The position numbers and the translations under genes were made by a program. Below, piece by piece: positions 54,625 to 58,150 of a stretch of DNA of 64,000 nt. Under the pieces are notes generated by a model. The model did not search any database. It saw only the letters and a program-made list of their open reading frames with translations, and was not told the origin of the DNA. Source of the DNA: Candidatus Saccharimonadota bacterium (GTDB lineage Bacteria > Patescibacteriota > Saccharimonadia > CAILAD01 > BJGX01). The first letter of the stretch is position 1. Every line of letters starts with the position of its first letter. The DNA lies in assembly GCA_016191105.1 (NCBI GenBank), contig JACPPH010000003.1, forward strand, positions 15,492-79,491, written 5' to 3'.

Positions 54625-57600
54625 ATCGACTATTAGTACACCTCGGCTAAACACATTGCTGTGCGTACACCTGGTGCCTATCAACGCAGTAGTCTTCTGC
54701 GAGTCTAATGGGGAAATCTAATCTTGAGGGAGGCTTCGCGCTTATATGCTTTCAGCGCTTATCCCGTCCGAACGTAGCTACTCGGCACTGCGCCTGGCGG
54801 CACAACCGATACACCAGAGGTTCGTTCACTCCGGTCCTCTCGTACTAGGAGCAACTCCTCGCAAATTTCCTAACGCCCACACCAGATAGGGACCGAACTG
54901 TCTCACGACGTTCTGAACCCAGCTCGCGTACCTCTTTAAATGGCGAACAGCCATACCCTTGGAAGGTGCTGCCCCTCCAGGATGAGACGAGCCGACATCG
55001 AGGTGCCAAACAGCGCCGTCTATGTGAACTATTGGGCGCTATAAGCCTGTTATCCCCGGCGTAACTTTTATCCGTTGAGCACTATCAATTCCACTTTTAA
55101 ATATAGTGGGTCACTAGATCCTACTTTCGTACCTGCTTGGCTTGTAGGCCTCGCAGTCAAGCTGGCTTATGCTCTTACACTATCGGTTCGATTTCCATCC
55201 GAACCTAGCCAACCTTTGAACGCCTCCGTTACTCTTTAGGAGGCAACCGCCCCAGTTAAACTACCCACCAGACACTGTTCCGTGTCCGGCATCTACTTAC
55301 TCGTTCTTGCGCTTGCTTTCTGCGATTAAACAGCGAACTTGCCCCAACTTTGTTGGGGTCGGCTTTTGCCGATGAGCGCACGGTTAAAAATCCATTGATT
55401 TTTAACCGAATAGGCAGATGACGGACACGGTAAGAGCCAAGTCATATACAGGGTGGTATTTCACTGACGACTCCATACGGGCTAGCGCCCATACTTCAAA
55501 GTCTCCCACCTATGCTACACAGTACAAAACCAGACTCAATGCCAAGCTGTAGTAAAGCTGCACGGGGTCTTTCCGTCTTGGTGCGGGTAAACGGCATCTT
55601 TACCGCTATTGCAATTTCACCGGGTCCCTCGTTGAGACAGTGCCCATATCGTTACGCCATTCGTGCGGGTCGGAACTTACCCGACAAGGAATTTCGCTAC
55701 CTTAGGACCCTTATAGTTAGGGCCGCCGTTCACCGGGGCTTCAGTTTGGTGCTTGCACACCGCTCCTTAACCTTCCGGCACTGGGCAGGCGTCAGTCCGT
55801 ATACATCCACTTTCGTGTTCGCACAGACCTGTGTTTTTGGTAAACAGTCGCATGGGCTCTTTTGCTGCGGCCCCGCCACACTATTTACAAAAGTGTGTGG
55901 AGTTGCAGTCCAAAAAGCATTTTGTTTTTGAACTTAAGCAACCAGCCTACATTGTAAACAATGTGGCGGGGCAGACCTTATCCCGAAGTTACGGTCGCTT
56001 TTGTTGCCGAGTTCCTTAACGAGGGTTCTCCCGAGCACCTTGGTCTACTCGACCCGACCACCTGAGTTGGTTATCGGTACGGGCGGCCTGGTTTATTAAT
56101 CACACAATTTTCTAGTCAGTTTGGCTTGCGCGAATTCAAGTCGTTAAGACTCGTTTCATTTGCGTTTCACCCCCGCCAATTTAAAGATCATGTTTACTAC
56201 CAAGTCATCATTATGTTTCAATAATGTAGACTGACAGATTTTTATAATCCCTAAATTGGCGGGGACTACGCGCTTGGACGGATATAGCCAAAAATCCGCT
56301 CACGCTACCACTCCGCGTCTTGTGTGGGAACAACCATGCCGGTACAGGAATATCAACCTGTTGTCCATCGCCTACGCTACTCGCCTCGGCTTAGGCCCGA
56401 CTAACCCTGGGACGATAAACGTGGCCCAGGAAACCTTGGTCTTACGGTGGGTAGGATTCTCACCTACCTTATAGTTACTCATTCCAGCATTCTCACTTGT
56501 ACGCATTCCACCATGGTTTACACCACAGCTTCAGCACGCGCACAACGCTCCTCTACCACTCCATGCGTAAGCATGGAATTCGCATCTTCGGCGCATAGCT
56601 TACAGCCCCGTTATATTTTCCGCGCAAGATCACAATTGACCAGTGAGCTGTTACGCACTCTTTAAATGCATGGCTGCTTCTAAGCCAACATCCTGGTTGT
56701 TTATGCAATCTCACCTCGTTTCCCACTTAGCTATGACTTGGGGGCCTTAGATGGCGATCTGGGCTGTTTCCCTTTTGAGCACGGAACTTAGCTCCCGTGT
56801 TCTGACTGCCGTAATAGTCTCGTCCGGTATTCGGAGTTTGATTGAGCGCGGTACACCGAAGTGCCCACTACCCATTCAGTGCTCTACCCCCAGACGGTAG
56901 TTTACGACGCTAGCCCTAAAGCTATTTCGAGGAGAACCAGCTATCTCCAGGTTCGATTGGAATTTCTCCGCTAACCACAGTTCATCCAAGCATTTTGCAA
57001 CATACTCTGGTTCGGCCCTCCACGTGGTTTTACCCACGCTTCAGCCTGACCATGGTTAGGTCACCTGGTTTCGGGTCTACTTCCTAATACTAAGACGGGC
57101 GATTAACCCTCGCTTTCACTACGCCTCCGTCGCGGTGCGACTTAAGCTTGCATTAGAAAAGTAACTCGCTGGATCGTTCTACAAAAAGCACGCGGTCACC
57201 GAACAAGTCGGCTCCCACTCATTGTAAGCATATGATTTCAGGATTCTATTTCACTCCCCTTGCGGGGTTCTTTTCACCTTTCCCTCACGGTACTTGTGCA
57301 CTATCGATCGTGTTGTGTAATTAGCCTTGGAAGGTGGTCCTCCCAGATTCAGACAAGGTTTCACGTGCCCCGTCCTACTTGAGTAGAGCAGATATAAAGA
57401 CAGTAGGTTTTAATGTACGCGACTTTCACGCTCTGTGGTGGTCCTTTCCAGGCGCCTTCCAATAATCATACTGTTTTGTAACTTTATCCATTCGATCCTT
57501 ATCGATGGTCGCATTTAACACGGCACAAAATTTGCACAGTGTTAAATGGTCGTCTGCAATCTCGCAACCCTCGTTCTTATTACTAAGGAACCCCAGCCAT

Positions 57601-58150
57601 TTCTAAGTTCGTTCTATACGCTGTTTCAGACGGGTCCATGTCGTTCCATAGTTTTTCAAAGTCCGTTCTCGTCTCATAGCCTGAGATCGAGTCCGGTAAG
57701 CTTCAAAATATATGAGTTTCCATGGGCCACGATTCTGATGCTCAGATAGTCTTCATTTTATATTGTTTGTTTGACCAATATAAAACTGACTTGTCTGCGT
57801 ATTCTTTAAAACATATACGCTGTACATGATTCAAAAGTATAACACGTTAACAAACACAGAAATTGCTGGGTAAGAACTAAGTTTTGGCTGATCCCGTTTC
57901 GCTCGCCGCTACTAAGGGACTCACGTTTGTTTTCTTTTCCTCGACCTACTAAGATGTTTCAGTTCGGCCGGTGCCTTCTACACACCCTATATATTCAGAT
58001 GTGAGTAATACGACATAACTCGTATTGGGTTCCCCCATTCGGATACCCCCGGATCAAAGCTTGATTGGCAGCTCCCCGAGGCGTTTCGCGCGCCTTCTGC
58101 GTCCTTCATCAGCACAACACGTCAAGGCATTCATCATATGCTCTTAAGTA
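54625..58150 (-). rRNA. rrl: 23S ribosomal RNA (with ~380-nt insertion in domain I)
   Basis: Reverse complement begins ...agttacttaagagcatatgatgaatgccttgacg, includes ...tagtagcggcgagcgaa... and the sarcin-ricin and peptidyl-transferase regions (gtacgagaggaccgg). It ends ...ggtgtactaatagtcgattgac. Total about 3.5 kb. 5S follows after a ~335-nt spacer. No 16S within 5.8 kb upstream. Confidence 0.9.
57461..57840 (-). other. AT-rich intervening sequence inserted in 23S rRNA domain I (between E. coli ~nt 270 and 280)
   Basis: Conserved flanks gtgtttgttaacgtgtt | ggaaggcgcctggaaagg align to E. coli GUGUUAGU|GGAAGCGUCUGGAAAGG. The 380 nt between them has no counterpart and lower GC than the rest of the rRNA. 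Confidence 0.55.

Follow-up and report, generated by a model that had tools for sequence, protein, structure and literature searches.

A GIY-YIG mini-element with terminal inverted repeats as the probable occupant of helix 15 in the 23S rRNA gene of a Candidatus Saccharimonadota bacterium

The 23S ribosomal RNA (rRNA) gene considered here is located on a contig of a Candidatus Saccharimonadota bacterium (GenBank assembly GCA_016191105.1, contig JACPPH010000003.1, positions 15,492 to 79,491), and this whole stretch of 64,000 nucleotides (nt) is called the window below. The main insert in domain I of the gene (57592-57870, minus strand) is probably a copy of a small selfish element, a reading to which we assign a probability of about 0.8. 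The element consists of a GIY-YIG nuclease gene within a 13-bp terminal inverted repeat, and it stands where helix 15 would otherwise have its apical hairpin. A preliminary description had treated the extra sequence as an intervening sequence (IVS) without a convincing open reading frame (ORF). That view holds for the position at a helix tip, the long closing stem, the absence from near relatives and the non-intron character of the insert, but not for the lack of an ORF, as the insert is a GIY-YIG element with inverted repeats. The relevant features are the following.

54613-58158, minus strand: 23S rRNA gene (Rfam RF02541, 2614 bits, model positions 1-2925)
57576-57875, minus strand: insertion 1, 300 nt replacing a 10-nt hairpin loop at model positions ~279-289 (cmscan)
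57592-57870, minus strand: 279-nt GIY-YIG mini-element replacing the apical hairpin of helix 15, as delimited by flank distance, same-site homologues and fold
57858-57870, minus strand: 5' terminal inverted-repeat arm, CCCAGCAATTTCT, which pairs with the 3' arm
57592-57604, minus strand: 3' terminal inverted-repeat arm, AGAAATGGCTGGG, placed by complementarity across 14 elements
57603-57827, minus strand: candidate GIY-YIG nuclease pseudogene, 74 codons and a TAG stop (translation, Pfam PF01541)
57753-57755, minus strand: in-frame TGA at codon 25, the sole defect of the ORF (translation)
57483-57551, minus strand: insertion 2, a 69-nt two-hairpin expansion at model position 312/313 (cmscan)

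The Rfam match agreed with the gene coordinates proposed earlier, which had been given without a strand; the gene lies on the minus strand. With 3546 nt it exceeds the 2925-position model by 621 nt (Rfam/cmscan), and inspection of the cmscan alignment in overlapping pieces revealed five insertions, every one at the tip of a hairpin or helix. The AT-rich extra sequence in domain I is real (39% GC versus 49% for the 23S rRNA gene). It had been described as a single block of ~380 nt, whereas it comprises the 300-nt segment and the separate 69-nt insertion, with 40 nt of conserved 23S sequence (57552-57591) between them. Its site is also not in helices 9-11, as had been considered, but in the hairpin at Rfam model positions 274-295, which we take to be helix 15 of the standard numbering. 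The names of helices 15, 25, 58, 63, 68 and 79 are likewise used as we assume them to stand in that numbering; all model positions were computed.

GTDB representative genomes were scanned with a lineage-specific 22-mer situated just 5' of the insert. The 21 loci obtained came mostly from metagenome-assembled genomes of Candidatus Saccharimonadia, Saccharibacteria and other Patescibacteria, the closest being 84-88% identical in 23S sequence. The 5' flank and GGGTTGCGAG are 310 nt apart in the window versus 47-56 nt in 13 related 23S genes, and the helix-15 site was empty in 13 of 13 related metagenome 23S genes. Pattern scans with the 23S flanks of genome and metagenome contigs, two collections that do not include the present contig, recovered only relatives without the element and no homologue of the helix-15 insert. 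The 69-nt segment, on the other hand, was alignable in all Saccharimonadia relatives (L001, L004, L005, L006, L010, L011, L013, L016 and L021) and is a lineage-typical expansion. The possibility that the domain-I sequence is an ordinary expansion shared by all relatives therefore applies to the 69-nt segment, present in all close relatives, and fails for the 279-nt element, absent from them. That the insertion is sporadic, is not an intron and lies in domain I of a CPR-type 23S gene, outside the usual intron sites, is the part of the earlier proposal that held up.

The reading frame of the nuclease was traced through a weak blastn match of the insert to a different insertion in L006. It starts with an ATG at 57827 on the rRNA-sense strand and is translated as MYSVYVLKNTQTSQFYIGQTNNIK, an in-frame stop, RLSEHQNRGPWKLIYFEAYRTRSQAMRRERTLKNYGTTWTRLKQRIERT and the terminal stop; the verdict that no convincing ORF was present gives way to a GIY-YIG ORF with one in-frame stop at 57827-57603. 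The match to Pfam PF01541 had an E-value of 3.8e-12 and 46.8 bits versus a curated cutoff of 22.6 bits. Weaker Pfam matches to MUG113 and T5orf172 overlie the same stretch and thus do not indicate a second domain. The translated product was 46% identical to the intact 86-aa ORF in the helix-25 insertion of L006 (BLASTP E = 2e-23). Residues Y5, Y16, R26, H30 and E42 are present and were invariant in the 3-sequence alignment A1 as well as in a five-sequence subfamily alignment; by analogy with I-TevI, we presume them to be the catalytic set (Tyr of GIY, Tyr of YIG, Arg, His/Tyr and Glu).

At the position of the interrupting TGA, homologues encode arginine, by CGT in L054 and L057, CGA in L006 and AGA in L022. 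The genes for IleRS, IF-2, PriA and RecJ in the window read normally under genetic code 11, which indicates that TGA is a stop in this genome. An apparent deletion of 8 aa relative to L006 was considered as a further sign of decay and rejected, since the short loop also occurs in the intact proteins P0061, P0026, P0121 and P0122 and is a trait of the subfamily. Compared with its helix-15 relatives, the window ORF had a ratio of nonsynonymous to synonymous differences (pN/pS) of 0.24-0.25, with synonymous sites saturated, and the corresponding substitution ratio (dN/dS) was 0.15-0.18 in the group of helix-25 ORFs. These low ratios indicate that the ORFs are translated as proteins. To judge from one nonsense codon and one mismatch in the repeat, the copy in the window is decaying; the ORF may have lost its frame only recently, or the TGA may be an error. 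Among the helix-25 copies, the GIY-YIG ORF at L037:3266-3526 is interrupted by an in-frame stop, with five codons still to go (..IID-stop-NGEG), and may also be decaying.

The terminal repeat is the second hallmark of the element. In the window, the 13-bp repeat CCCAGCAATTTCT/AGAAATGGCTGGG contains one A/G mismatch at position 7, which is the sole core mismatch among 14 sampled elements. A significant inverted repeat surrounded the ORF in all 12 of the 12 elements tested. Elements of the family measured 264-312 nt, and all of them start with CCC and end with GGG. Over 14 elements, 96.2% of the 13 terminal pairs were complementary, a percentage that is inflated by the choice of the arms for their pairing, and compensatory changes were found at 9 of the 13 pairs; none of 500 shuffles reached the observed level and slid registers gave 37-55%, the compensatory changes and the slid controls being less affected by that choice.

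The repeat travels with the gene and is not borrowed from the rRNA helix. This follows from three observations. L057 at helix 15 and L059 at helix 25 share an identical repeat, CCCAGCCATTTTA/TAAAATGGCTGGG, and the proteins of both belong to the subfamily of the window ORF, which is marked by the motif LKNYGTTWTRLKQR. Free-standing intergenic copies with the repeat occur in L022, L023, L028 and L048. An identical 84-aa GIY-YIG protein, P0041, is found together with the inverted repeat after a Polysacc_synt gene in L048-L053, where the downstream neighbours vary by contig between a glycosyltransferase, a C5-epimerase and a methylase/restriction cluster. The latter variation suggests either mobility or a position at recombination break points. 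The 3' arm encodes the C-terminus in many copies (...NGEG, ...KGAG, ...KMAG), and many of the top protein matches end in ...IDKNGEG encoded in this way. In the helix-25 copies, the stop codon is supplied by the GUGAC sequence of the rRNA itself. The target flanks are unrelated, with GGAGC|...|GTGAC at helix 25 versus GTTT|...|TTTTC at helix 15, and the helix-15 site is used in three lineages.

Same-site homologues were found by a single-sequence protein search, which retrieved P0121 in L054 (74 aa, intact, 74% identical to the window ORF) and P0122 in L057 (75 aa, intact, 66% identical). Contigs L054-L056 and L057-L058 represent 23S genes of two other Saccharimonadia lineages, with the ORF at the same tip of helix 15 and can be aligned over the whole element. 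The elements in the window, L054 and L057 replace the native apical hairpin of ~16-18 nt and do not merely split its loop. Near relatives differ in occupancy: the flanking 23S sequence of the filled L054 was 91% identical to that of the empty L001 and L038, and the filled L057 was 96% identical to the empty L006. Such patchiness points to recent gain, or to loss by recombination with an empty allele. The 23S gene of L057 contains two GIY-YIG elements of different subfamilies, with P0122 at helix 15 (722-1002) and a P0004-like ORF at helix 25 (~1390-1710).

GIY-YIG elements at helix 25 are common in 23S genes of Saccharimonadia and other bacteria of the Candidate Phyla Radiation (CPR), and were present in L006, L030, L036, L044, L037, L018, L046/47, L059/60 and L062/63. 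A related element in L045 occupies a third 23S site, near model position 1895. The tip of helix 15 is itself a recurrent insertion site, as L010 (~5200-5340) and L021 (~4380-4520), from another Saccharimonadia clade, carry an unrelated ORF-less insertion of ~135 nt there, with its own long closing stem. Neither blastn with the insert nor tblastn with the nuclease detected a second copy of the element in the 64-kb window, and a pattern scan of the window for further CCCC.CAC...GTG.GGGG repeat pairs gave 0 matches versus 0.3 expected. The helix-15 apex of L042 (~20 nt past the 22-mer match at 1909-1930, minus strand) reads CTCAGCC-GCAA-GGCTGGG, a tetraloop-closed near-copy of the repeat CCCAGCC/GGCTGGG. 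Loss of the ORF may have left it as a solo-repeat scar, or the likeness may be a coincidence.

As a family, these elements of 264-312 bp are found in CPR bacteria both in the gaps that separate protein genes and on the tips of at least three 23S helices, where the paired repeat arms would prolong the host helix as a stem of ~21 bp. As the arms pair and the element continues the host helix, the core fold of the rRNA would remain undisturbed and the insertion would be tolerated. The nuclease, produced from the pre-rRNA or from an excised fragment, may promote the spread of the element into hairpin tips. Classical sequence-specific homing appears to be an unlikely route, since one subfamily occupies two unrelated targets, helix 15 and helix 25. 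A tentative extension of this proposal is that the elements constitute an undescribed class of autonomous mini-elements of ~265-310 bp, composed of a stem-forming repeat (CCCNGC...GCNGGG) and a single-domain GIY-YIG gene, which would not home to a sequence but exchange places with the apical hairpin of any suitable stem. Their targets would be helices 15, 25 and 68 of the 23S rRNA together with intergenic hairpins, and they could employ a hairpin-specific or single-stranded DNA (ssDNA)-specific cut, as do the Ssn nucleases discussed below.

Several points weigh against the selfish-element reading. The mechanism of mobility is deduced from the distribution of the copies, and neither a target-site duplication nor a defined cleavage site was found. 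The DNA identity of 63-69% among the three helix-15 elements also fits old vertical inheritance with repeated loss. An RNase III signature motif was not detected in the 64-kb window, a negative of little weight, as the window represents only part of the genome. The pairing percentage carries the selection effect given above, and the TGA could have arisen by a mistake in sequencing or assembly; the gene would then be intact.

The insert region folds at -101 kcal/mol (z = -7.0, minimum free energy fold), and in an RNAalifold comparison of six elements the closing stem of ~21 bp was the only structure kept, the internal stems not being conserved. A perfect or near-perfect duplex of ~21 bp is a usual substrate of RNase III. 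We lean towards a fate in which an RNase III-type enzyme cuts the element stem out of the pre-rRNA and the ends are not rejoined, which would leave a fragmented 23S rRNA; retention of the element as a protruding extension is a less probable fate, and removal in some other way an improbable one. It also appears unlikely that the element is never removed and constitutes a retained helix-15 extension, that is, a lineage-private expansion segment with the GIY-YIG remnant as a fossil without a present role. This explanation draws on the fact that all five extra segments prolong their host helices as stable hairpins, that two of them are shared by relatives like ordinary expansion segments, and that the ORF is already broken. 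It is opposed by the resemblance of the closing duplex to an RNase III substrate and by the purifying selection on the intact ORFs of relatives, which must therefore reach ribosomes as mRNA-like RNA. Moreover, a survey of CPR rRNA insertions relates, citing Brown 2015, that such insertions are taken out of the transcripts, and it regards some of them as probable IVSs processed by RNase III (PMC11270868). A classical ORF-less IVS, in which RNase III cuts a non-coding spacer from a helix tip, would share the position, the long closing stem and the sporadic distribution of the insert. As stated it is refuted by a recognisable GIY-YIG domain with one stop and by the intact homologues at the same site, and its excision step survives within the preferred reading of a nuclease-bearing element. 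A degenerate group I or group II intron with a homing endonuclease gene, spliced by exon ligation, is hardly more credible. Group I introns classically carry GIY-YIG genes, the top NCBIfam match of the ORF, below threshold, was "group I intron endonuclease", and related 23S genes do contain group I introns. However, the same survey places all GIY-YIG ORFs in non-intron insertions (PMC11270868). In region 57480-57900 no Rfam intron model matched at gathering score or at E <= 10, the only match being a chance one to a CRISPR repeat (E = 9), whereas the same Rfam library detected the group I introns of L016 and L038 as a positive control. The conserved RNA structure is furthermore limited to the terminal stem, and the insert occupies a helix tip that is variable rather than a position in the conserved core.

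Metagenome assemblies commonly break or misjoin at rRNA genes, so foreign DNA misjoined into the 23S gene was also weighed as the origin of the insert. Such a chimera is the least plausible of the explanations, since helix 15 is preserved exactly at both junctions and independent assemblies that come from other samples (L054-L058) show this architecture again at the identical site, with many more cases at helix 25. A gene that is intact and active, whose TGA would be a mistake of sequencing or assembly or a minority allele, or would be read through, is a rather doubtful alternative. The TGA is the only defect in 74 codons, the pN/pS of the ORF indicates constraint over most of its history, and the survey warns that stop codons within endonuclease genes embedded in rRNA may be artefacts of metagenomes (PMC11270868). 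Yet a change from the CGT of the relatives to TGA requires two substitutions, the mismatched repeat fits relaxed selection, and TGA is a stop in this genome, as long ORFs elsewhere in the window read normally under code 11.

The insertions surveyed by Tsurumaki et al. (2024) are the closest published counterparts. Among 348 23S genes, 15 GIY-YIG ORFs were reported, out of 30 in CPR rRNA insertions overall; all were located in non-intron insertions at the tops of poorly conserved stem-loops and were judged to lie outside classical homing (PMC11270868). The window element agrees in being at least 100 bp long relative to Escherichia coli, in its place on a poorly conserved stem-loop top of a CPR 23S rRNA, in its PF01541 ORF, in the lack of similarity to group I and II introns and in its sparse, scattered occurrence. 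On every testable feature it belongs to this known category. The difference is in the host: Saccharibacteria were described as nearly free of endonuclease-bearing rRNA insertions, 64 of 66 being short (PMC11270868), whereas the host here is a member of Saccharimonadia, a class in which helix-25 and helix-15 copies occur repeatedly. That survey seems to describe neither the inverted-repeat unit that is found in free-standing copies as well nor the occupation of several helices by a single subfamily.

The element also shares traits with classical 23S IVSs, in that the loop of a helix tip is replaced, the ends pair in a long stem, the occurrence is sporadic and a small ORF may be carried. Classical IVSs are found in helices 25 and 45 of Salmonella, and in Leptospira and Coxiella with the 23S_rRNA_IVP protein. 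Helix 25, occupied by the sister elements, is thus a classical IVS site; helix 15 is, to our knowledge, not. In contrast to classical IVSs, the window ORF encodes a GIY-YIG nuclease and not a member of the four-helix 23S_rRNA_IVP family. Phage T4 td provides the comparison for group I introns, with the GIY-YIG homing endonuclease I-TevI of 245 aa. Both systems place a GIY-YIG domain inside an interrupted conserved gene and are distributed patchily, as in a cycle of gain, decay and loss; unlike I-TevI, the window protein has only 74 aa and lacks a separate DNA-binding domain, and no ribozyme surrounds its gene. By sequence, the closest solved structures were the UPF0213 proteins BH0048 (PDB 1ZG2, E = 2.8e-9) and EF2693 (PDB 1YWL, E = 2.7e-6), which are single-domain proteins like the window protein, of ~100 aa. 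We know of no report that associates UPF0213 with rRNA or inverted repeats.

In its logic, the nearest analogue is the Ssn family of single-domain GIY-YIG ssDNA nucleases, which are organised in NTS-ssnA-NTS units and recognise a hairpin that is still cleaved when its loop is made much longer (Chenal et al. 2025; PMC11893778). Only a resemblance is proposed. Shared features are a single-domain GIY-YIG protein of less than 100 aa (74 aa here) and a gene between hairpin-forming inverted repeats in a layout like that of an insertion sequence. The systems differ in that each Ssn flank contains a complete SRM hairpin, while the two flanks of the window element are halves of one stem, and an rRNA context is not reported for Ssn. 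The published SRM pattern was found in 0 of 15 GIY-YIG-bearing loci scanned, and none was present in or near the window element.

Elsewhere in the window, two hairpins at 15332-15359 and 21040-21067 (plus strand) have the sequence TGTCATTCCCGCG[C/T]AGGCGGGAATC[C/T]AG, a near-exact match to CGTCATTCCCGCGMAVGCGGGAATCYRG, the NTS/dRS3 consensus of Neisseria that the ssDNA nuclease SsnA recognises (PMC11893778). They lie downstream of an ftsA-like and a hisS-like gene, respectively, each at a distance of ~60 nt, and there is no GIY-YIG gene near them. The published SRM pattern had 2 matches in the window versus 0.4 expected, both far from the element, and a relaxed hairpin pattern had 4 strand-matches at those two loci versus 0.01 expected.

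The remaining three insertions in the 23S rRNA gene had been overlooked in the single-insertion picture of the preliminary description.

56181-56253, minus strand: insertion 3, 73 nt in place of 7, a hairpin extension at model positions ~1537-1543 (cmscan)
55882-55959, minus strand: insertion 4, 78 nt in place of 3, a hairpin extension in the helix 63 region at model positions ~1763-1765 (cmscan)
55289-55418, minus strand: insertion 5, 130 nt in place of 2, a branched extension in the helix 79 region at model position ~2239 (cmscan)

All three fold as plain helix extensions, the 73-nt segment as one extended hairpin. The latter is common to L016 and partly to L021/L019, and absent from L011 and L006. 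The 78-nt extension is present in L011, L006 and L016 and absent from L010, L021 and L019. At the 130-nt site, inserts occur in L010 and L021 and none in L011, L006 and L016. The helix-63 extension is thus shared within a subclade, the 73-nt and 130-nt extensions are variable, and the extra 23S length beyond the helix-15 element is ordinary helix-tip expansion.

The surroundings of the gene on the minus strand comprise the following features.

54181-54290, minus strand: 5S rRNA gene (Rfam RF00001, 84.9 bits)
54291-54612, minus strand: 23S-5S spacer of 322 nt (Rfam boundaries)
58160-58172, minus strand: part of the 23S leader, pairing with trailer bases 54600-54612 (RNAduplex of leader versus spacer)
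59505-60146, minus strand: gene for a 213-aa protein, upstream of the 23S where a 16S gene would be (tblastx and blastn synteny)

No small subunit rRNA gene and no tRNA gene was found in the whole 64-kb window by Rfam and tRNA searches, which extends the earlier remark that a 16S gene is missing within 5.8 kb upstream of the 23S. The spacer, previously estimated at ~335 nt, is indeed long. The missing 16S linkage and the long spacer are hence genuine, but, contrary to the first impression, neither is unusual: related loci show that both are typical of the lineage. A 16S gene adjoined the 23S in none of the related Saccharimonadia loci, and the 23S-5S spacers of relatives ranged from 105 to 1247 nt. 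The 213-aa gene was syntenic 5' of the 23S in six relatives (L001, L013, L036, L037, L038 and L054). In L043, the 3' end of a 16S gene and two tRNA genes are on the strand of the 23S gene, 7.6-8.5 kb upstream of it (L043:777-9615), which suggests that the 16S of the window may sit just past coordinate 64000. The cultured Saccharibacterium TM7x also has a non-contiguous operon, with pyrD between 16S and 23S (PMC12424978). The first 13 nt of the spacer pair with the 23S leader at 58160-58172 and presumably form a normal processing stem.

The longest spacers, of 1148-1247 nt, were those of L038 (4783-5999), L016 (3015-4261) and L019 (2066-3213), each with a LAGLIDADG ORF of 157-181 aa; according to Rfam, the 23S genes of L016 and L038 contain group I introns as well. 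The 322-nt spacer of the window contains no Pfam-matching ORF and has no homology to these three LAGLIDADG spacers. A GTG-initiated ORF of 104 codons (54301-54615, minus strand) nearly fills it and is probably spurious, since it had neither a Pfam match nor a homologue in the spacers of relatives. Downstream of the 5S gene, region 48170-53155 encodes several putative membrane-anchored secreted proteins that are paralogous.

With respect to annotation, a supposed non-coding IVS is better described as a decaying nuclease-bearing mobile element, and most other oddities of the operon are normal for Saccharimonadia. The published view of Saccharibacteria as lacking endonuclease-bearing rRNA insertions is qualified by helix-25 and helix-15 elements in about a dozen distinct 23S sequences of the Saccharimonadia type. 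The repeat architecture common to rRNA-embedded and free-standing copies offers a testable reason for the tolerance of such elements in an essential single-copy gene, and the likeness in logic to the Ssn nucleases makes the spread of GIY-YIG genes in CPR rRNA without introns or obvious homing accessible to experiment. Should the hairpin exchange prove true, it would explain how protein-coding selfish DNA colonises single-copy CPR rRNA genes without a ribozyme: the element would bring its own helix.

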